This document shows, one piece after another, positions 1 to 32,903 of a DNA stretch of 32,903 nucleotides. A program made the translations under genes and the position numbers. Position 1 is the stretch's first letter; each line of letters opens with the position of its first letter. The notes under the pieces are model-generated. The model saw nothing but the letters and a program-made list of their open reading frames with translations, did no database searches and was not told where the DNA came from. The stretch is from a virus, in the IMG/VR virus record IMGVR_UViG_3300001346_000002; one strand, given 5' to 3'.

Positions 1-97
1 GTAAAAGAGAAACAAAAAGCAGAAGCAGCACAGCGTAGAATGGAGGAACTAAAAAGAAGATGAGCGAAGGACTAGTAACAAAGCATAGCACAATAAC
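1..97. repeat. 97-bp terminal direct repeat. An identical copy lies at 32807..32903, so this is either a circular-assembly overlap or true terminal redundancy.
   Basis: Read directly: gtaaaagagaaacaaaaagcagaagcagcacagcgtagaatggaggaactaaaaagaagatgagcgaaggactagtaacaaagcatagcacaataac occurs at both ends of the window. Confidence 0.95.
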
Positions 98-623
98 CCA
101 AGTACTAGAGGACTTTGGGAATGAGATGCAGACAGACTTAAAAGCTGAGCTGGTTAAGGATGGTGCTTATGTTTCTGGAGACTTAGCCGAACAAATAGAG
201 TTTACCTCTGTAATCAATGGCGAAGGCTTTGTATTCTCGCTTAGGTTAAAAGACTATTACGATTATGTGAATAAGGGAGTAAACGGAACTAAGACAGTTA
301 AGAATAACACACCCTACTCTTATATGTCTAGCTCTAAAATACCTTTTTACTTTGCTAAGCAATGGATGAATAACAAAGGATTGTTTAAAACTAAAGGAAG
401 CACTATAACAAGTTTAGCAGGCAAGCAGTACAAGGTAGGCTCTAAAGATTCTCAAGCGTTTGCAATGGCTAGAAGTTGGAAAGAGAAAGGAACTAAGGGT
501 AACCACTTTTATGACAATGTAGTAACAGAGGCAAGGCTCGACAAACTTAAAAAGGACTTAGCAAGTGCAGCAGCAGGAGACTTAAAAACAGTAATAACGG
601 ACACATTCAAAAGACTTAAATAA
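60..623 (+). CDS. Hypothetical virion-module protein, 187 aa
   Basis: Long ORF. Its ATG overlaps the upstream TGA (agaagATGAgc) and its stop abuts the next ATG at 624. It lies in the structural block after the terminase. I recognise no motif. Confidence 0.55.
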   Translation: MSEGLVTKHSTITQVLEDFGNEMQTDLKAELVKDGAYVSGDLAEQIEFTSVINGEGFVFSLRLKDYYDYVNKGVNGTKTVKNNTPYSYMSSSKIPFYFAKQWMNNKGLFKTKGSTITSLAGKQYKVGSKDSQAFAMARSWKEKGTKGNHFYDNVVTEARLDKLKKDLASAAAGDLKTVITDTFKRLK

Positions 624-1826
624 ATGGCAATAACTATAAATGCAACTCCTAAAGACTTTGCTCCTGTTTACAATAAAATGGAGTATCTTATAGAATCCAC
701 TAATGTAGCACAACCAAACTTTGCTTATTTAGTAGATATCTATATTAATTTTGCAGTAACAAAGACAGTACGTTTAAGAATACCTGCAAGACCTTCTGAC
801 AATAAGGGAAAGGTAGATATCCATAGAGTTCTAGAATCTGCTCTTACATCAGACATAGGTAACCCACTAGGAACTGACTCAGTATATGATGCTACTAATA
901 GTTTTCTAACTTATGTTATTAAATTCGGAGAGGAATACGGTACAACAATAGTACAATATCCAGACCTTACTATAGATACTATTAGAAAGACCTTTAACGG
1001 TAGCTTAGAAAAAAGACCTTTTGTTAATTGGGATGACACAGAATACGAGCTAGACGGAGCTACCAAAAAGTTTATGACTAATATGCCTAATGATAATAAA
1101 GTATCTTTAGACTCTCATGGATGGCTTTACTACAGAGGTTTTCCTTTTATTACTGATTTTGTTATTGTAAGGTTTTTAACAGGTGGAGCTGTGCAGAGCG
1201 TACAGATAGATGCTGCTGCTTCTGCTGCAAATATAAGATTTGTGCCATCTGCTCCTGCCACTTTAAACAATATAGATAATTCTAATTTTACAGCAGGCGC
1301 ACAGCCTATAATTACATCCGACACAGAGCGATATTACATGATAGCTTTAGATAGTGGTGGCAATGTTGTTTCTGAACAAAAACACTTTACACTACAGGAG
1401 GCTTGCAAGTACAATACTAATACCTTAATATTTCAGAACAATCTAGGAGGGTTCGATAACTTTACATTCTATTTAGGCGATATGTCTATGACAGATATTG
1501 AGAGAAAGGACATGAAGGTAAACGTAGACAATGTAGTAGGAAACGATATAGTGTACTCAATGAATGAGCGCGAAAAGGTAACATACTACACTAAAAAAAG
1601 CGAGACTATAAAATTAATGTCAGATTGGATAACAGAAGCAGAAAGCAACTGGCTACTAGAATTAATTTCAAGTCCTGAGATATACCTACAGAATGGAGAT
1701 GAACTTACAGCAGTAGCTAAGATTAAAGCAACCAACTACACTAAGAAAAAAGTAGTAAGGGATAAGCTATTCAAAATAGATGTAGAGCTTGAGCTAGGTT
1801 ATGACGATTACAGACAACGTATATAA
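624..1826 (+). CDS. Virion structural protein (tail or baseplate type, unassigned), 400 aa
   Basis: The 400-aa ORF directly abuts both neighbours. Its composition is beta-rich and Asn/Thr/Ser-rich, typical of tail proteins, and it sits upstream of a very large tail-type gene. Confidence 0.5.
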   Translation: MAITINATPKDFAPVYNKMEYLIESTNVAQPNFAYLVDIYINFAVTKTVRLRIPARPSDNKGKVDIHRVLESALTSDIGNPLGTDSVYDATNSFLTYVIKFGEEYGTTIVQYPDLTIDTIRKTFNGSLEKRPFVNWDDTEYELDGATKKFMTNMPNDNKVSLDSHGWLYYRGFPFITDFVIVRFLTGGAVQSVQIDAAASAANIRFVPSAPATLNNIDNSNFTAGAQPIITSDTERYYMIALDSGGNVVSEQKHFTLQEACKYNTNTLIFQNNLGGFDNFTFYLGDMSMTDIERKDMKVNVDNVVGNDIVYSMNEREKVTYYTKKSETIKLMSDWITEAESNWLLELISSPEIYLQNGDELTAVAKIKATNYTKKKVVRDKLFKIDVELELGYDDYRQRI

Positions 1827-3458
1827 ATGGTTACAGAGAAACTTATAATAGAGGGAGTTACTATACCGATAGACAAGGGTATTTCTACTGTGCTAACTTT
1901 TAGCATCAAAGATATTCAACAACCCGATAAGGTAAAGTCTAGTTTTAGTAAGACAATTAAGCTACCGGGAAGTAAGGCAATAAATGATAAGCTAAATTTT
2001 ATCTTTGAGGTAAATAGCGATTCTACATTTAATCCTAACTTGAAACTAGATGCGGTTTACTATCAAAATGACATAGCAGTATTTAGTGGTTTTATACAGT
2101 TAAAAGACATTCACAAAAAAGACTATAACCAAGTTGAATATAGCGTAGTGCTATTTGGAGAAACTGCTAATATCTTTAGAGAGCTAGGTAACAAGTTTCT
2201 GAATGACTCAGGTATGTTATGGAATGAGTTAGACCATGACTATACAAGAGTAATACAAGAAAATAGTTGGCAGACCTCATACATAGAAAATGGAGTAGTT
2301 ACACCGTTTCAACTTGGAAGCGGATATGTTTATCCAATGATTAATTACGGAAATGATACAGACATAAGCGTATACAATGTAGATGAGATGTTTCCTGCTG
2401 TTTATGCTAAGGAATACATAGATAGAATGTTTGCGGATTCAGGCTATACCTATACATCGACATTTTTAAACAGTCTACTATTTAAGCGTTTAATCATCCC
2501 TTTTAATGGCAAAGAATTTAAAAGTACTCAAACAGATTTAAGTCCTAGAAGGGTAGAGGCAAATACACCTTTATTTGTATCTAGTGGAAGTAATAACTTT
2601 ACTTTAGATTCATCTATTTACTCAAGCAATAGCTTCGTAGAAAATACAGTAAGACTTTCTAATGAGGTTGTAGACGCAAATAACCAATACAACTCAACTA
2701 CAGGGGAGCTAACAATAGGAGCAACTGGTTTGTATAGAATTTCATTTGATGCAATTATACAAATGGAAACAACTCCACAAGCAGGCGCAGCAGCAGCAGG
2801 GGATTTAATAGCAAATGGAAACGCTAATTTTTTGAATAATTTTGGAGTTTATGTGAATGGGGTATTTCAAAACGCTGTAACCTCTTACACTTTTGCAAAT
2901 AATTTAACTCCTGCTGTAACTTATCAAACAGCTAACCCTACATTATACCCAGATAACAACTTTTTAAATCCTCCAGGAAATGGACTTGTTTCCAGAAACT
3001 ACAACCCGCCAAACCAATATCAAGTAAATACAGACATACAATTAAATTCTGGAGATGTAGTAACTATTAAAATAGCTAGTGCTTGGAATCTTAGGGTGTT
3101 CAATTCTTCTGTAAATGGATATCCATTTCTACCTCTTTCTCAATTTAAACCTTACTATGATGTTAATAGTACACCTTCGCCACCTGTACAAATTAAAGAC
3201 GAGTACGATGCAGATTTTAAAATAATATTGTCTAGCGCGAATCTTTCTTTAAACATATTAGACTCTCCTTATTTAGAGGGCGACACAGTAGACATGGCTA
3301 GCGCTATCCCTGACAAGGTAAAACAAAGAGATTTTCTAACGTCTATTATAAAGATGTTTAACCTCTATATGATACCCGACGAGAATAACCCTAAGAATAT
3401 TATAATAGAACCTAGAGAGGATTTTTATACTACAGATGTAATAGACTGGAGTCAATAA
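1827..3458 (+). CDS. Large tail/host-recognition protein, N-terminal segment (543 aa). The gene continues in the +1 frame from 3445.
   Basis: The ORF ends ..IDWSQ-TAA at 3456..3458. The adjacent frame is open from 3445 and reads straight into the 3601..4800 ORF. The Asn/Ser/Thr/Gly-rich composition is tail-fibre-like. Confidence 0.55.
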   Translation: MVTEKLIIEGVTIPIDKGISTVLTFSIKDIQQPDKVKSSFSKTIKLPGSKAINDKLNFIFEVNSDSTFNPNLKLDAVYYQNDIAVFSGFIQLKDIHKKDYNQVEYSVVLFGETANIFRELGNKFLNDSGMLWNELDHDYTRVIQENSWQTSYIENGVVTPFQLGSGYVYPMINYGNDTDISVYNVDEMFPAVYAKEYIDRMFADSGYTYTSTFLNSLLFKRLIIPFNGKEFKSTQTDLSPRRVEANTPLFVSSGSNNFTLDSSIYSSNSFVENTVRLSNEVVDANNQYNSTTGELTIGATGLYRISFDAIIQMETTPQAGAAAAGDLIANGNANFLNNFGVYVNGVFQNAVTSYTFANNLTPAVTYQTANPTLYPDNNFLNPPGNGLVSRNYNPPNQYQVNTDIQLNSGDVVTIKIASAWNLRVFNSSVNGYPFLPLSQFKPYYDVNSTPSPPVQIKDEYDADFKIILSSANLSLNILDSPYLEGDTVDMASAIPDKVKQRDFLTSIIKMFNLYMIPDENNPKNIIIEPREDFYTTDVIDWSQ

Positions 3459-3600
3459 GCTAGACTATTCTAAAGAGCATAATCTTACACCAACTGCTGT
3501 AACTAATAAGCAAAAATACATATACACTTACAAGCAAGATGCTGACTATTACAATAAGAAATATGAATCTAGTTGGCTAGATATATACGGAAGTAGAAAC

Positions 3601-10817: not shown

Positions 10818-11212
10818 TGCCAATTTTGATAAACGAAAATACTACAAGCAATCTAACTTTAACACTAAAGGAAAAGACTACATTATCTACTCCCGTTTAT
10901 TTATTTCAGTTTAGAAATGTAACCGAGAAAGTTAGCTACTATTGTATAATGTCAGACACTAGCTTATACAAAGACAGATACAACGAATTTGTATTTACAG
11001 AAGGAACAGACCTACCATTAGCAGGAGAGCTTATATTAGGAGCAGGCGGTCAATATGAGTATTTTGTTTATGAGCAAACCTCAACAACTAACCTAGACCC
11101 TACCTTAGCAACTGGCTTAGTGGAAAGTGGCTTAATGGACTTAGAACGTGCAAGTACTACCTATAATCAGCACGACATAGATGTAACCTACAAAACACAT
11201 CAAGTAACATGA
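10817..11212 (+). CDS. Hypothetical virion-module protein, 131 aa
   Basis: The ORF is coupled to both neighbours: TAATG upstream and a 4-nt ATGA overlap with the portal gene. Confidence 0.5.
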   Translation: MPILINENTTSNLTLTLKEKTTLSTPVYLFQFRNVTEKVSYYCIMSDTSLYKDRYNEFVFTEGTDLPLAGELILGAGGQYEYFVYEQTSTTNLDPTLATGLVESGLMDLERASTTYNQHDIDVTYKTHQVT

Positions 11213-13128
11213 TGAACAAAGAAAATATTTTAATCTTTAATTTTGAAGCTAATAAGCCTCCAGTATTTAAAGAGGAAAGAGGGAAAGACTATATCGTATA
11301 TGGTACAGAAGCACCTTACAAGAATTTATACCCAGACTATTTAGTAGAGCTTTACAATACCTCAGGAAAACATAATAGTATAGTAAACGGAAAGACTAAT
11401 TACATAAGTGGTCGAGGTTGGAAAGTAGACCAAACAGTTAGAACTTTAGAGGACAAAGTTAAACTAGAAAACTTTATTAATCACGTAGGTAATGACTCTT
11501 TATTTGAACTTACAAAAAAGATTGTAAAAGACAATGAGCTTTTTGGCGGTTATGCTTTAGAAGTAATAGTTACTAAAGATGGCAAAGGTTTAATTATTAA
11601 TCATATTGACTTTGGAGACATAAGAGTCGGAGTTGAGGAGGATACTTATTTCTATACAAGCGACTGGGCAAGTAGAAAACCAACAAGCAACGAGGACTTT
11701 GAAACATTAACATCATTTCCTTTTGATGGTTCTGCAATTAAAGGTGAAAGATACATTTGTTATTACAAGAGTTATAGACCAAATCTCAAAGAGTATCCCT
11801 TGCCAAATTACATAAGCGGGATAAATTACATAAAGAGTGATTATGAAGTATCTAATTATGTATTGAACTCAATATCAAATGGTTACAGTGGCGGTACGAT
11901 TTGGAACTTTCACAATGGGCAACCTACTCAAGAAGCTCAAGCATACATAAAAAAACAGATTAAAAATAAACATCATGGCTCTAATAATGCAGGCGAACCA
12001 GTTATTATTTTCGACGATGGAAAGGACAAAGGAGTAGAGATAATATCTACTAACCCTAACGGACAAGACGACAAGTTTATTAATCTTAACCAACAGATAC
12101 AAGACGAAATTTTTACAGCGCATGGAGTAGATGCTTCTGTATTTATTAAAACAATAGACACAGGCTTTAGCAATAACGCAGACGAGTTAAGAGTAGCTAT
12201 TGAGGCAATGAATAGCAGTTACATTGAGCCTAACCAAATCATGTACGAAAAGTTATTTAATGACTTTGTTGTTTTGTTAGGAATGCCTAGCGGTTTAAAG
12301 ATTGAAAAGATTGCACCAATATCTACACCACTTAGCGAAAATGCTTTGACTGCTGTAATGACTACAGCTGAAATAAGAGAAATGGCAGGACTACCTCCAT
12401 TAAAAGCAGAGGAGCAATCAGGAGGAGCAGCAGACGCACTAGCTACATTATCTCCATTGGTTGCTACTAAGGTACTAGATAATATGACTGCTGAGGAGAT
12501 AAGAGGCTTAGTAGGTTTGAAAGGCTCGCCAACTATAACTAGAACAGAATCTAAGTTTAGCGAGGATGAGGAGTTTAAATTTGATTTGTCAGAGTTTGGA
12601 TATGCAGAAGATGAGCTAGAAGTAATAAGCGAAAAGGAGTTAGACTATAACCCTTTCGATTTTGCAGACATAGGAAGTATAGACAGCCAAATAATAGACA
12701 TCGTTAAAGCTACTCCTAAAGTAACAGTAGAGGAGATAGGGCAGCAAGTAGGGGAAACACCTAGCGAAGTACAAGAAAGGATAGATAGACTAGTTAAGAA
12801 CGGTTTATTAGACTTGACGAAAACAAAGATAAAAGTAACAGACGAAGGGGAGCGAGAAACATCTGAGTTAATTACAGTTTACAAATACAAGTTAAGACAC
12901 GACGCACCATCTTTAAGAGGTGGCAGAAGTAGAGATTTTTGTAGAAAGCTAATGAAAGAGAATAGAAGCTATGAGCTTAAAGATATTTTAGCAATGAATA
13001 ATAAACAAGGCTCTAATGTATTCGCTCATCGTGGAGGTTGGTATAATAACCCAGTAACAAAAACTAGAACCAATTACTGTAGACACGTATGGTCTGCACG
13101 TACGGTAAGACTTAAGAAAGATGCTTAG
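11209..13128 (+). CDS. Portal protein with an unusual C-terminal extension (winged-helix-like segment plus a basic Cys/His tail)
   Basis: The first ~400 aa have the HK97-type portal pattern (..HHGSNNAGEPVIIFDDG..VEIISTNPNGQDDKFINLNQQIQDEIFTAHGVDASVF..). The C-terminus contains IVKATPKVTVEEIGQQVGETPSEVQERIDRLVKNGLL and ..DFCRKL..YCRHVW. Confidence 0.7.
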   Translation: MMNKENILIFNFEANKPPVFKEERGKDYIVYGTEAPYKNLYPDYLVELYNTSGKHNSIVNGKTNYISGRGWKVDQTVRTLEDKVKLENFINHVGNDSLFELTKKIVKDNELFGGYALEVIVTKDGKGLIINHIDFGDIRVGVEEDTYFYTSDWASRKPTSNEDFETLTSFPFDGSAIKGERYICYYKSYRPNLKEYPLPNYISGINYIKSDYEVSNYVLNSISNGYSGGTIWNFHNGQPTQEAQAYIKKQIKNKHHGSNNAGEPVIIFDDGKDKGVEIISTNPNGQDDKFINLNQQIQDEIFTAHGVDASVFIKTIDTGFSNNADELRVAIEAMNSSYIEPNQIMYEKLFNDFVVLLGMPSGLKIEKIAPISTPLSENALTAVMTTAEIREMAGLPPLKAEEQSGGAADALATLSPLVATKVLDNMTAEEIRGLVGLKGSPTITRTESKFSEDEEFKFDLSEFGYAEDELEVISEKELDYNPFDFADIGSIDSQIIDIVKATPKVTVEEIGQQVGETPSEVQERIDRLVKNGLLDLTKTKIKVTDEGERETSELITVYKYKLRHDAPSLRGGRSRDFCRKLMKENRSYELKDILAMNNKQGSNVFAHRGGWYNNPVTKTRTNYCRHVWSARTVRLKKDA

Positions 13129-22895: not shown

Positions 22896-23953
22896 TATTA
22901 GAAAACAACTCAGGCAAAAAGTATTTAGATTCTATTAGGGATGGTAGCTTTAAACTAGGATTAGAAATTGGATGCCCTCTGGATTCACATCTGCGCTACA
23001 AGCAAGGTACATTTAATGTTATGGCTGGACACGCCAACGTAGGAAAGACTAAATTTATACTTTATTATTATCTTTGTTTAGCTGTAAAGCACTCTAAAAA
23101 GTTTTTAATCTTTAGTGCTGAGAATAGCACAGGAGGAATTAAAAGAGATTTAATACAACTCCATGCAGGTAAACAACTAAAAGAACTTGACGAGCAGCAG
23201 TATGAATATCATTTTAACTGGGTAGGCGAACACTTTAAATTTATAGACTTTGAACAGTTCTACAGAATTAACAAAAGGTTTATGAACTTTAGAGATGTGT
23301 TTAAAGCAGCTTTAGATGACTGCGAGTACTTTGATGCTTTGGTTATAGACCCTTACAATAGTTTAGCAACCTGCGAAGATATAAAAGGCAATAGCCACGA
23401 AAGAGATTATGCAGTAGCTAGTGAGTTTAGAATGTTCTGCAAACAAAATAATAAAAGTATTTACTTACTTGCTCATGGAAATACAGAAGCTCTACGTAAA
23501 ACTTTTACAAAAGGACATGATTTTTACGGACACCCTATTCCGTTAATGGCATCCGATATTGAGGGAGGCGGTAAGTGGGTAAACAGAGCAGATGACTTTA
23601 TCGTAATACATAGACTAACTCAGCACGAAAGTGAATGGATGAAAACAGAGGTACACATCCGCAAAATTAAAGAAGTAGAAACTGGAGGCACACCAACCTT
23701 TATGGAATCGCCAGTTATTTTTCACATGGACAAAGGAGGATTAAGTTTTAATTGTTACATTCGTCAAAAAGATTATAGTATATTGCCACCTAATGCAAAA
23801 AACCCATTAAGCGATATGCCAGTAGTAGAACCTAAACAAACGGAATTAAAACCAAATAAAGCATTTGATATAAACCATACCATAGAACCAAAGCCAACTA
23901 AAGACGAGGACTGGCTAAGTGGTTACATGGAAGAGGAAGAATTTAAGATATGA
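22892..23953 (+). CDS. DnaB-like (RecA-fold) replicative helicase
   Basis: Walker A is MAGHANVGKTKF and Walker B is ALVIDPYNSL. It follows the initiator gene with a 4-nt overlap. Confidence 0.65.
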   Translation: MILENNSGKKYLDSIRDGSFKLGLEIGCPLDSHLRYKQGTFNVMAGHANVGKTKFILYYYLCLAVKHSKKFLIFSAENSTGGIKRDLIQLHAGKQLKELDEQQYEYHFNWVGEHFKFIDFEQFYRINKRFMNFRDVFKAALDDCEYFDALVIDPYNSLATCEDIKGNSHERDYAVASEFRMFCKQNNKSIYLLAHGNTEALRKTFTKGHDFYGHPIPLMASDIEGGGKWVNRADDFIVIHRLTQHESEWMKTEVHIRKIKEVETGGTPTFMESPVIFHMDKGGLSFNCYIRQKDYSILPPNAKNPLSDMPVVEPKQTELKPNKAFDINHTIEPKPTKDEDWLSGYMEEEEFKI

Positions 23954-24591
23954 AAGTAACAGATAAAATAACAATAACGAATGAGGATAATATGCAGTTA
24001 ATGGCACGCTATCCAGACAACTATTTTGATTTAGCTATTGTAGACCCTCCTTATGGTATTGATGTTACTAAAATGACACTTGGGAATGGAAAGAAAAAAA
24101 TTAATAGGGGTTTATCAAATTGGGATAGTAGTATACCTACTTTAAAATATTGGAATGAATTGTTTAGAGTTTCTAAAAATCAAATAGTATGGGGAGCAAA
24201 TTATATGACAACATTTTTACCTCCAAGTATGGGTTGGGTGTTTTGGGATAAAGGAACAGGTGCAAATGATTTTTCAGATGGCGAACTTGCATATACAAGT
24301 TTTAATAGGGCATTACGAAAATATAAAGTTTCTTGGGTTGGTGCTAATGCTAATAATGGCACTCCAAGAATACACCCAACAGAAAAACCGATACAACTTT
24401 ACGAATGGTTATTAATGAACTACGCAAAAAAAAACGATAAAATACTTGATACACATTTAGGAAGTGGAAGTATAGCTATTGCTTGCCATAACAGAGGCTT
24501 TGAGTTAACAGCGTGCGAATTAGATAAAGAGTATTACGAAGCAAGTATTAAGAGATTTAAACAACAGACAGCACAACAAACAATGTTTTAA
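23950..24591 (+). CDS. Orphan beta-class DNA methyltransferase (N6-adenine or N4-cytosine family; the DPPY motif favours m6A)
   Basis: Motif IV (IVDPPYGI) is near the N-terminus and the AdoMet motif (ILDTHLGSGS) is near the C-terminus, which is the beta-class order. No restriction endonuclease partner is nearby. Confidence 0.75.
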   Translation: MKVTDKITITNEDNMQLMARYPDNYFDLAIVDPPYGIDVTKMTLGNGKKKINRGLSNWDSSIPTLKYWNELFRVSKNQIVWGANYMTTFLPPSMGWVFWDKGTGANDFSDGELAYTSFNRALRKYKVSWVGANANNGTPRIHPTEKPIQLYEWLLMNYAKKNDKILDTHLGSGSIAIACHNRGFELTACELDKEYYEASIKRFKQQTAQQTMF

Positions 24592-26090: not shown

Positions 26091-26351
26091 ATGAATATTT
26101 TAAAAGAAGCAGATAAAATAATAAACGAAAGAGCAGAAGAAAAAGAAAGAGCTTATGGACCATTTGAAGATTCAATGACAAAAGCCGCCTCTATTGCATC
26201 GGAATTATGTAATAAGCACATAACTACAGAAGACTTCTATAAGTGCATGATAGCTCTTAAGATGAGCCGTATGGCATATAATTTGAAAGAAGATACATTG
26301 CTAGATTGTGTAGCTTATGTTGGTGCGCTAAATAACTACAAAAATGATTAA
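26091..26351 (+). CDS. Small conserved phage protein (DUF6378-like by recollection), co-translated with the ThyA-fold gene
   Basis: The pattern ERAYGPFEDS..IAS..ITTEDFYKCMIALKMSRMAYN..EDTLLDCVAYVGAL resembles a widespread ~90-aa phage family that often sits beside nucleotide-metabolism genes. It overlaps the next gene by 8 nt. Confidence 0.4.
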   Translation: MNILKEADKIINERAEEKERAYGPFEDSMTKAASIASELCNKHITTEDFYKCMIALKMSRMAYNLKEDTLLDCVAYVGALNNYKND

Positions 26352-27105
26352 CAACAGATTTGAACGAGACTACAAGCATCTTTTAATGGAGTGCTTAATA
26401 AATGGAGAACTGACAAATAATAGGACAGGCGTAAAAACATACAAGCTTTTTAACAAGACATTTAATATAGACCTACAGAAAGGTTTTCCAATTGTAACAG
26501 CAAAAAAAATAAACTTTAGCTTTGGGTTACACGAGTTTTTATGGATATTCAATGGCAGAACAGACTTAGCTTATTTAAACGAGCATGGTATAAAATGGTG
26601 GAATGGGTTTGCCAAAAATGGAAAGCTAGGTAAAGTATACGGCTATCAGTTAAGAAAGTTTGGGGGCAGTTTTGACCAAGTAGACTATGTTATTAATGAA
26701 ATAAAAAACAACTCCAGAAGAGCTGTTATAAGTTTATGGAACCCAAACGATTTAAAAGAGCAAGCCTTGCCATGTTGTTATACTCATTTTAACTTTGTTA
26801 GAGCTGGGAATAACTTAAATATGTCAATGGACTTTAGAAGCTCAGATATGTTTTTAGGGTTGCCTTATGATATAATTGTAGGAGCTTTACTATTAACTAC
26901 TATAGCAAAAGAGTGTGAACTTACGCCGAGCAAGCTGGGTATAAATTTAAAAGATGCACATATTTATGAAAATCATAAAGAGCAAGTAATAGAATACAAT
27001 AGAACAGAAACACATGTACTACCCTCTTTGACAGGAGGCATTGAAAAATACGAGTTAGATAATTATACTCACGGCAAATATATTAAAGCAAAACTAAATA
27101 AATAA
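26344..27105 (+). CDS. Thymidylate-synthase-fold pyrimidine C5-(hydroxy)methylase with Asp at the ThyA Asn177 position; predicted to be dCMP-specific
   Basis: It aligns without gaps to E. coli ThyA blocks: NRTG (R21), HEFLW (E58), SRRAVISLWNP (R126/R127), ALPCCY (Cys146) and FRSSDMFLGLPYD against QRSCDVFLGLPFN. Residue 177 is therefore Asp, not Asn. Confidence 0.7.
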   Translation: MINNRFERDYKHLLMECLINGELTNNRTGVKTYKLFNKTFNIDLQKGFPIVTAKKINFSFGLHEFLWIFNGRTDLAYLNEHGIKWWNGFAKNGKLGKVYGYQLRKFGGSFDQVDYVINEIKNNSRRAVISLWNPNDLKEQALPCCYTHFNFVRAGNNLNMSMDFRSSDMFLGLPYDIIVGALLLTTIAKECELTPSKLGINLKDAHIYENHKEQVIEYNRTETHVLPSLTGGIEKYELDNYTHGKYIKAKLNK

Positions 27106-27114
27106 ACAAAAATT

Positions 27115-27444
27115 ATGAAAAACCAATTTGAATTAATTAGAGAATGGGCAGAGTCAAAAGGAATCTATGAGAAAGGAGATGTAAAGACTCAATATGTAAA
27201 ACTTCAAGAAGAAGCAGGGGAATTAGCAAAAGCTATAATGAAAGATAATTATGAAGAGTTTGTAGATGCTATAGGAGATTGTGTTGTTGTTTTAACAAGT
27301 ATAGCTGAGTTAGGAAATAAGCATTTTAATATTCAGCCTTTTGACAAGCAATTAACTATTGAAGAGTGTATTGATACAGCTTATAATGTTATAAATAAAA
27401 GAACAGGTAAAATGATTAATGGAACTTTTGTAAAAGATAATTGA
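27115..27444 (+). CDS. mazG: MazG-like all-alpha NTP pyrophosphohydrolase, 109 aa
   Basis: The metal-binding motifs are KLQEEAGELAKAI (EExxE) and FVDAIGDCVVVL (DxxD). The size is typical of phage MazG. Confidence 0.7.
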   Translation: MKNQFELIREWAESKGIYEKGDVKTQYVKLQEEAGELAKAIMKDNYEEFVDAIGDCVVVLTSIAELGNKHFNIQPFDKQLTIEECIDTAYNVINKRTGKMINGTFVKDN

Positions 27445-27445
27445 T

Positions 27446-27862
27446 ATGAGGAAATATATAGCAAAAATAAATATAACAGAAGCGCTTTTAAAAGAGAGCA
27501 CAGGGTATATAGGAGAGAAAGTATTTGAACAATGGTTTATGAACAACTTTCAAGGAGAACAACTATTTAAACAAAACGCTGATAGAGATTACCAGCAGAT
27601 TGATTTTGTAGATGACAAGGGCTATAAGTATCAAGTGAAAGCTACAAGAGAAAAGACTTATACGTTTAATTGTATATTAGAAGATATTGAGGAGCATTTA
27701 GCAAGTGACGTATATGTATTGATACAAATAAAAAATAAAGTTGCCTATATTGAAACCTTTTACAATAAAGAGTATATAAAACAAAATATAAATCAAAGCT
27801 TTAAATATAATAATAGTTTTATATGGGCGAAAGATCTACAGCAAAATGTATTAGATATATGA
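27446..27862 (+). CDS. PD-(D/E)XK nuclease-like protein, 138 aa
   Basis: GEKVFEQWF (E) .. QIDFVDDKGYKYQVKAT (D..QxK) is compatible with a restriction-endonuclease-like core. This is a weak, motif-only assignment. Confidence 0.35.
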   Translation: MRKYIAKINITEALLKESTGYIGEKVFEQWFMNNFQGEQLFKQNADRDYQQIDFVDDKGYKYQVKATREKTYTFNCILEDIEEHLASDVYVLIQIKNKVAYIETFYNKEYIKQNINQSFKYNNSFIWAKDLQQNVLDI

Positions 27863-32774: not shown

Positions 32775-32869
32775 ACGTGATAGAGTTTTTAAATATTTGC
32801 AGCTTTGTAAAAGAGAAACAAAAAGCAGAAGCAGCACAGCGTAGAATGGAGGAACTAAAAAGAAGATGA
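32540..32869 (+). other. -1 frame open window overlapping 32094..32774. It is either the C-terminal extension of a frameshift fusion or, minimally, a 32-aa micro-ORF from the ATG at 32771.
   Basis: The frame is open for 110 codons. It ends in a TGA that overlaps the ATG of the next gene (position 60 = 32866). The ATG at 32771 overlaps the 0-frame TGA. Confidence 0.45.
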
Positions 32870-32903
32870 GCGAAGGACTAGTAACAAAGCATAGCACAAT
32901 AAC
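32807..32903. repeat. Second copy of the 97-bp terminal repeat. It duplicates the end of the micro-ORF/frameshift product and the first 38 nt of the gene at 60.
   Basis: Identical to 1..97 by direct comparison. Confidence 0.95.

Follow-up and report, generated by a model that had tools for sequence, protein, structure and literature searches.

A probable nucleotide-pool cytosine-methylation cassette in a small marine phage genome: a ThyA-fold enzyme with the Asn177-to-Asp change beside a MazG-type pyrophosphatase

Background

Some bacteriophages alter cytosine at the nucleotide level, by means of enzymes that share the fold of thymidylate synthase (TS, ThyA). In T4, a pyrophosphatase (gp56) converts deoxycytidine triphosphate (dCTP) to deoxycytidylate (dCMP), and a ThyA-fold enzyme (gp42) modifies C5 before replication. 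The present report concerns a cassette at positions 26091-27862 of the IMG/VR virus record IMGVR_UViG_3300001346_000002, a stretch of 32,903 nucleotides referred to below as the window, whose central gene (26344..27105) encodes a ThyA-fold enzyme. The closest described systems make 5-methylcytosine (5mC). The TS homologue of phage Xp12 makes 5-methyl-dCMP (5mdCMP), and five of seven MetaGPA homologues with Asp at position 177, from seawater and sewage, made 5-methyldeoxycytidine (5mdC) in E. coli together with T4 gp1 (bioRxiv 10.1101/2024.12.05.627091). TS homologues carrying N177D are a published marker of cytosine-modified phage DNA, and the co-occurrence of TS with PRA-PH/MazG proteins has been published as well (PMC8670742; bioRxiv 10.1101/2024.12.05.627091).

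Residues are numbered as in E. coli ThyA unless stated otherwise. Position 177 is the major pyrimidine-specificity determinant of TS (PMC8670742) and, according to literature cited in that paper, the TS mutants N177D and N229D methylate dCMP. When MetaGPA was applied to viromes from sewage and seawater, no TS positions were more strongly linked to cytosine-modified contigs than 177, which ranked first, and 147, which ranked second (PMC8670742). A signature for hydroxymethyl transfer came from the ternary complex of T4 dCMP hydroxymethylase (dCH): Asp or Glu three residues before the catalytic cysteine (Cys-3), Ser or Thr at the site of Ser94, and absence of the C-terminal tail, which in TS (I258, A260, V262, A263) closes the site for hydride transfer; the D145N mutation of dCH abolished synthesis of 5-hydroxymethyl-dCMP (5hm-dCMP) (PMC6400193). 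A 2026 paper arrived at the same L143 rule and recognised flavin-dependent 5-hydroxy-dCMP synthases by D169N (PMC13326640).

Results

The cassette consisted of four tightly packed plus-strand genes, the first two of which overlapped by 8 nt:

26091..26351, plus strand: DUF6378 protein, 86 aa (Pfam PF19905, E 1e-13), the conserved upstream partner of the TS gene
26344..27105, plus strand: ThyA-fold enzyme, 253 aa (PF00303 match), predicted deoxycytidylate C5-methyltransferase (5-methyl-dCMP synthase)
27115..27444, plus strand: MazG-type all-alpha nucleoside triphosphate pyrophosphohydrolase, 109 aa (PF03819, PF01503), proposed dCTP-to-dCMP enzyme
27446..27862, plus strand: PD-(D/E)XK restriction-endonuclease-like protein, 138 aa (AlphaFold2 model and Foldseek), optional fourth cassette gene

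The cassette is read here as a module that would methylate cytosine in the nucleotide pool; we put the probability of this reading, which covers the predicted chemistry and the logic of the cassette, at about 60%.

The 253-residue enzyme matched PF00303 (Thymidylat_synt) over residues 9-241 with an E value of 7.7e-66 (222.4 bits, cut-off 24.3) and PHROG 160 with an E value of 6e-72. About 120 solved TS chains were matched, the best at 6e-44 and E. coli TS at 1e-42. When HMMER was used to align the protein to three TS structures, the segment frssdmflglpydi paired with qrscdvflglpfni at maximal posterior probability, so that Asp occupies the Asn177 position, and alpccythfnf paired with alapchaffqf, also at maximal posterior probability, which makes the second Cys of ALPCCY the catalytic Cys146. 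The key residues were thus C146, Y147, F165, S168, D169, Y176, D177, L143, V93 and W80, and the protein ended in YIKAKLNK. Identity to E. coli ThyA was 35% over the full length, with R21, E58, W80, Y94, R126/R127, L143, C146, R166, S167, D169, H207, Y209 and the C-terminal I-K-A kept; the two enzymes differed by N177D, H147Y, F176Y, Q165F, C168S and W83F. A first-pass annotation of the window had aligned the protein with ThyA block by block, naming R21, E58, R126/R127, Cys146, R166/S167/D169 and the C-terminus, and all of these were present. It had also placed Asp at the Asn177 position and proposed a rigorous alignment as the test; the alignments to TS structures put Asp there, and the residue proved to define a clade. 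On these alignments the TS fold and the catalytic apparatus are intact.

A search of 5.8 billion proteins yielded 542 relatives, the best 120 of which (58-94% identical, mainly from marine metagenomes) were aligned together with the query to E. coli ThyA. D177 was found in all 121 sequences and is therefore neither a chance nor a sequencing variant. Y176 and D169 were equally constant (121/121 each), position 147 was Tyr in 101 and Phe in 20, and position 143 was Leu in 117 and Ile in 4. The residues R21, E58, W80, Y94, R126, R127, C146, R166, S167 and Y209 were invariant, and H207 was present in 120 of the 121. F165 (Gln in E. coli) and S168 were identical in all eight window-clade sequences of one signature alignment, and the C-terminal consensus of the clade was IKAxL, compared with IKAPV in E. 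coli. IMG/VR alone held 403 relatives of the window enzyme, and every source named these proteins thymidylate synthase.

The nearest TSs of cultured phages (Bacteroides B40-8, Arthrobacter Correa and Rhizobium RHph_X3_15) were 37-40% identical and retained the canonical H147, Q165, F176 and N177. No TS above 39% identity was encountered in 185,579 prokaryotic species, represented by one genome each, where the best match was an ordinary ThyA; on present data the clade therefore looks virus-only. The window enzyme was 29% identical to that of Xp12 and 27% to that of phage PaMx74, did not cluster with the proven enzymes, and, being closer to E. coli ThyA, represents a lineage in which the Asn-to-Asp change is independent.

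A second marine sub-lineage with Asp177 was observed on two contigs (L099, 6263-7036; L101, 6266-7042). These enzymes departed from canonical ThyA essentially just by H147Y, F176Y and N177D, and kept W83, Q165, A168 and a canonical C-terminus, IKAxVAV. The Asn-to-Asp switch has therefore arisen or spread more than once. L101 is a phage of 66 kb whose PolIII-alpha genes are split; in it DUF6378 precedes the Asp177 TS, and no MazG gene comes after that TS.

The residues of the window enzyme were compared with the published signatures. A TS specific for deoxyuridylate (dUMP) reads the O4/N3 edge of uracil by Asn177 with Gln165 and His147, where the window enzyme has D177, F165 and Y147. The pattern of a dCMP methylase was found instead: D177, a non-acidic residue at Cys-3 (L143), D169 and a retained C-terminal tail. 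By every published criterion set out above, the enzyme is predicted to be of the dCMP-acting, methyl-transferring, dihydrofolate-producing type, a deoxycytidylate C5-methyltransferase. The earlier proposal that C5 modification of dCMP was likelier than synthesis of thymidylate (dTMP) thus gained support from the placement of D177, its invariance in the clade and the coupled changes around it.

Neighbouring genes were counted at 84 related loci taken from IMG/VR and from assembled metagenomes, the denominators being loci with enough flanking DNA. A MazG homologue lay directly downstream of the TS gene at 81 of 82 loci, a DUF6378 homologue directly upstream at 65 of 80, and the 138-aa protein directly after MazG at 27 of 80. 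Homologues of the deaminase, P-loop kinase and DNA polymerase A of the uncultured phage MedDCM-OCT-S28-C10, and of the dihydrofolate reductase (DHFR) of PaMx74, were absent within 6 kb at all 84 loci.

The MazG protein exceeded the cut-offs of both family profiles (PF03819 MazG, 26.8 bits against 22; PF01503, 22.4 against 21.3) and matched the MazG-like PHROGs 715/1992 at 1e-30. The metal-binding set EExxE...DxxxD was intact, with E32, E33, E36, D51 and D55 invariant, and the profile matched the MazG-related PDB entries 1vmg (E 1.4e-9) and 2yxh. MazG of cyanophage S-PM2 favours dGTP and dCTP (PMC6850273), and by analogy a dCTP-to-dCMP role for the window protein would be reasonable. The assignment as a MazG-type pyrophosphatase made in the first pass therefore stands on profiles, motifs and neighbourhood alike. 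Also upheld were its reports of a conserved 86-aa protein overlapping the TS gene upstream by 8 nt, an open reading frame (ORF) that was confirmed, and of a PD-(D/E)XK-like protein after the cassette, on which the fold model and the conserved residues agree.

Bases 1-97 of the window were an exact copy of bases 32807-32903. Because of this terminal (assembly) overlap, the genome is complete at 32,806 bp and circular or circularly permuted; its GC content was 34.6%. Almost every ORF of 70 aa or more was scanned against Pfam and PHROG, and several ORFs of the structural module gave no match. The scan identified replication-type genes (ERF, exonuclease, single-stranded DNA-binding protein (SSB), a DnaD-like organiser and a DnaB-like helicase), a DNA methyltransferase with a DPPY motif, NinG, terminase, portal, protease, endolysin and tail genes. 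No DNA polymerase, deoxynucleoside monophosphate (dNMP) kinase, deaminase, DHFR or glycosyltransferase was found among these ORFs, nor any carbamoyltransferase or arabinosyltransferase gene in the genome. A kinase, deaminase, DHFR, polymerase or glycosyltransferase hidden in the unannotated ORFs was considered, and Pfam and the PHROGs gave nothing, several structural-module ORFs being matchless. In agreement with the earlier remark that dNMP kinase, glycosyltransferase and DNA polymerase were lacking, any pathway must lean on the kinases, DHFR and replisome of the host.

Discussion

The proposed pathway would begin with MazG, which would hydrolyse dCTP to dCMP and pyrophosphate, lowering the canonical dCTP pool and feeding the next enzyme. 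The ThyA-fold enzyme would then bind dCMP, with Asp177 reading the N3/N4 edge of the cytosine, as its residue signatures suggest. Cys146 would attack C6, the one-carbon unit would come from 5,10-methylene-tetrahydrofolate, and transfer of a hydride would yield 5-methyl-dCMP and dihydrofolate. This last step is expected because, with Leu143, Val93, Trp80 and the IKAxL lid at the C-terminus all kept, the site should stay sealed. Host kinases would lift 5mdCMP to the triphosphate, 5mdCTP, and the host replisome, recruited by the ERF, SSB, DnaD-like and DnaB-like module of the phage, would incorporate it. As a result, 5mC would replace some or all of the cytosine in phage DNA and blunt many restriction enzymes. 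More speculatively, unmodified DNA may be the target of cleavage by the PD-(D/E)XK protein, and DUF6378 may be an accessory factor.

A further step would be to regard the three or four genes (DUF6378, the methylase and MazG, with or without the nuclease) as self-sufficient for making 5mC-DNA through the host replisome in widespread marine phages of about 30 kb that have no polymerase, dNMP kinase, deaminase or DHFR of their own. DUF6378 might then be a new accessory factor that makes a host kinase accept 5mdCMP or that regulates TS, and the nuclease would destroy unmodified (host) DNA, giving a unit of modification plus restriction at the level of the pool. We regard self-sufficiency of this kind as doubtful.

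The closest described phages are Xp12 and PaMx74, in which cytosine is fully replaced by 5mC. Their enzymes share S168, D169, Y176 and D177 with the window enzyme and, like it, have no acidic residue at Cys-3. A PRA-PH/MazG-superfamily pyrophosphatase adjoins TS in the same operon in both, in the order pyrophosphatase then TS (D177); it is 245-257 aa long and upstream, whereas the window MazG is 109 aa long and downstream. The window enzyme has Y147 and L143 where the Xp12 type has P147 and N143, and the C-termini differ. Xp12 and PaMx74 also carry a gene of the 5mC-deaminase type, DHFR and their own DNA polymerase (the last seen for PaMx74), none of which is present in the window genome, while neither DUF6378 nor the PD-(D/E)XK gene was annotated in the Xp12 and PaMx74 regions retrieved.

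The MetaGPA contigs resemble the window in Asp177, a non-His residue at 147, the co-occurrence of PRA-PH/MazG and marine origin. The closest phage TS in GenBank, 52% identical and with the motifs LPCCY and FLGLPYD, was that of the T7-like MedDCM-OCT-S28-C10. Its genes for a PRA-PH pyrophosphatase, a P-loop kinase, the Asp177 TS and a dCMP-deaminase-family protein were seen to stand in a row (L001, 5179-7200) just before a primase-helicase and DNA polymerase I; the annotation makes all of them ordinary genes of the dTMP pathway. This row fits the published layout of 5mC synthesis plus deaminase and is probably mis-annotated. In the MetaGPA contigs and MedDCM-OCT-S28-C10, typical additions are a dCMP-deaminase-family gene, a P-loop kinase and DNA polymerase A, whereas the window group has DUF6378 instead, with or without the nuclease.

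Several observations weigh against the methylation reading: 1) the genome has no dNMP kinase, whereas a promiscuous one had to be co-expressed in the published in vivo assays; 2) it lacks the DHFR and the 5mC-deaminase of Xp12 and PaMx74; 3) the window enzyme shares more identity with E. coli ThyA (35%) than with the enzyme of Xp12, a proven methylase (29%); 4) the P-loop protein beside the TS of MedDCM-OCT-S28-C10 is annotated as a dTMP kinase (Pfam kinase/AAA matches being below threshold), and the window genome has no equivalent; and 5) palindromes containing cytosine have been strongly purged. With expectations from a maximal-order Markov model over the whole genome, GGCC was found once (18.3 expected), AAGCTT twice (17.7), GAGCTC not at all (10.3), TCTAGA once (11.1) and CCGG three times (12.7). 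The 5mC of Xp12 DNA blocks Sau3AI, NlaIII, HindIII, SacI, XbaI and MspI, and does not block MboI or TaqI, so the purging of palindromes that 5mC protects in Xp12 would be unexpected if all cytosines were methylated.

GATC was depleted too, with 4 sites against 55.5 expected; since MboI is unaffected by the 5mC of Xp12, avoidance of GATC is compatible with 5mC DNA. Related contigs with the cassette (L002, L021, L042, L079, L099) had 0-3 copies of GATC, CATG or CTAG where 25-40 were expected, and in the 5mC phage PaMx74 avoidance was weak. Avoidance of this kind is a sign of strong pressure from Type II restriction and fits oddly with full protection by 5mC. Across related loci, avoidance of GATC showed no clean correlation with the presence of the 138-aa nuclease. 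The absent kinase and the purged palindromes therefore lower confidence in complete substitution, with no bearing on the predicted chemistry of the enzyme.

An alternative fate for the product was also considered. 5mdCMP could serve chiefly as a route to thymidylate, a host deaminase converting 5mdCMP or 5mdCTP to dTMP or thymidine triphosphate (dTTP), so that the virion would contain little or no 5mC and the benefit would lie in dTTP supply. Such a role has been proposed for 5mC-selective deaminases beside Asp177 TSs in Xp12-like and seawater phages (bioRxiv 10.1101/2024.12.05.627091), MedDCM-OCT-S28-C10 has a dCMP-deaminase gene directly after TS, the window genome is AT-rich, and the palindrome purging suggests DNA that is not generally protected. 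However, no deaminase was found in the complete genome or within 6 kb at the 84 loci, the known 5mC-selective deaminases are phage-encoded, and the same end could be reached more simply with an ordinary TS. We consider this route unlikely.

Hydroxymethylation was weighed next. An enzyme like T4 gp42 would make 5hm-dCMP and lead to 5-hydroxymethylcytosine in DNA. The specificity residue is common to the two (Asp179 in gp42), the pairing with a MazG-superfamily protein recalls gp56 with gp42, and the logic of the pathway would be the same. Identity to gp42 was nevertheless 21%, and Cys-3 is Leu (in A-L-P-C-C; Leu or Ile in all 121 clade members), and even D145N is enough to stop 5hm-dCMP formation by T4 dCH (PMC6400193). 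The second member of the water-activating pair, Asp145/Ser94 in gp42, is replaced too, with Val93 standing where Ser or Thr would be expected, and the C-terminal lid missing from T4 dCH is kept as I-K-A-x-L. T4 furthermore has a dNMP kinase (gp1), glucosyltransferases and its own polymerase, whereas the window genome has none of these and no glycosyl- or carbamoyltransferase. The first-pass annotation had described the C-terminus as ThyA-like, which holds, and had considered methyl and hydroxymethyl transfer impossible to tell apart, which does not: L143, V93, D169 and the lid favour methyl transfer. Hydroxymethylation is accordingly quite improbable.

It is also improbable, in our estimate, that the protein is an ordinary TS that tolerates Asp and converts dUMP to dTMP, with MazG in a house-cleaning role or supplying dUMP in the manner of a dUTPase. 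The TIGR03284 score of 182 bits exceeds its cut-off of 108, every source calls the protein thymidylate synthase, the other catalytic and folate-binding residues are all conserved, and DUF6378 stands beside ThyX in another phage. On the other hand, six of the eight equivalog models for TS in NCBIfam fell far under their cut-offs (among them NF002497, NF002496 and NF002499; for example, 204 against 327), and literature cited in PMC8670742 has the Asn177-to-Asp change switching TS to dCMP. Asp177 is, moreover, invariant and coupled with H147Y, F176Y and Q165F, while the nearest cultured-phage TSs keep the canonical residues. Finally, a flavin-dependent 5-hydroxy-dCMP synthase like RB69 gp48 or DLP3 gp80, which are likewise ThyA homologues with Asp177 (PMC13326640), is extremely unlikely, since D169N is absent (Asp169 in 121/121), position 143 is Leu and not Glu, and the genome has no arabinosyl- or glycosyltransferase genes.

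Pool-level methylation of cytosine is a kind of system that is already known from Xp12, PaMx74 and the MetaGPA seawater contigs, and the mechanism is not new. The novelty consists in an enzyme lineage of its own, a genomic setting more minimal than any so far and two partners that are conserved yet uncharacterised; as the principle is in the literature, the gain lies in scope and in those two partner genes. If the methylation reading is true, common small marine phages would swap cytosine for 5-methylcytosine with two or three small genes and host machinery, and pool-level methylation would reach minimal lambdoid-style genomes, beyond the large polymerase-encoding phages (Xp12, T7-like marine phages). 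The handling of marine viromes by restriction-based, bisulfite and nanopore methods would be affected, and a systematic mis-annotation as thymidylate synthase in databases would be corrected.

Partner genes and other features

The AlphaFold2 model of the DUF6378 protein was a four-helix bundle (predicted local distance difference test (pLDDT) 87). A Foldseek search of the PDB returned nothing below E 1.7 and a profile search of the PDB nothing below E 0.58. Its matches in BFVD were almost solely viral proteins that were named DUF6378 or unnamed; the few named otherwise were an N6-adenine methyltransferase, a DnaE-like polymerase and a nucleic-acid-binding protein. The phage in which DUF6378 adjoins ThyX is a Faecalibacterium phage. 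A degenerate second MazG-like pyrophosphatase was considered and rejected (hhalign to the MazG alignment, probability 0.1%; no structural match in the PDB), as was a kinase, suggested by the PHROG label phosphofructokinase, the protein being a four-helix bundle of 86 aa that lacks a P-loop.

The 138-aa protein had no Pfam or PHROG match. Its invariant residues were E24, D53 and Q63-x-K65, and the AlphaFold2 model had a pLDDT of 88 and a predicted template-modelling score (pTM) of 0.83. In the PDB, Foldseek placed the N-domain of Eco15I and NhoI best (E 4.5e-5 to 1e-3, template-modelling (TM) score 0.48-0.55), followed by PvuII, DpnI and Hjc, all five with a probability of 0.93-1.0 and TM scores of about 0.4-0.56. 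As modelled, the protein has the PD-(D/E)XK nuclease fold, which is defined by an alpha-beta-beta-beta-alpha-beta core and by a conserved acidic residue and a (D/E/Q)xK motif on neighbouring strands. Eco15I and NhoI are 5mC-dependent restriction enzymes, and the same specificity here would conflict with a phage that methylates itself; at a TM score of about 0.5, the structural match is too low to carry the specificity of NhoI or Eco15I over to the modelled protein.

The MazG neighbours at the 81 loci were of two sizes: 37 were short like that of the window and 44 were ORFs of about 250 aa that carried a GIY-YIG/T5orf172 domain at the N-terminus. This homing-endonuclease-like domain was joined in frame to MazG in, for instance, L010 (5524-6270), L014 (3133-3894) and L082 (6750-7517). 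The long forms had been candidates for PRA-PH/'HAD' fusions of the Xp12 kind, and the identity of the extra N-terminal part as GIY-YIG/T5orf172 disposed of that.

By megablast the genome had no DNA-level match among deposited phages, and the TerL relatives of the window phage were less than 30% identical. Two further genes were recorded:

23950-24591: DNA methyltransferase with a DPPY motif (PF01555 N6_N4_Mtase, E 2e-14), 1.5 kb upstream of the cassette
11209-13128: portal protein (PHROG 33693, Pfam Phage_portal) with a C-terminal AsnC-type winged-helix helix-turn-helix (HTH) domain at residues 491-534

The phage thus also has a conventional post-replicative N6-adenine or N4-cytosine methylase. 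The fusion of an AsnC-type HTH to a portal protein is unusual for portals. On a 120-kb metagenome contig (L100), a phage with the DUF6378-TS-MazG cassette adjoined bacterial ilvC, ilvA and a Na/sulfate symporter gene, the GC content being 35.7% in the bacterial part (1-3600) and 28.6% in the phage part (3633-10625). This boundary is possibly a prophage junction, and with it a clue to the host, or else a chimeric assembly.

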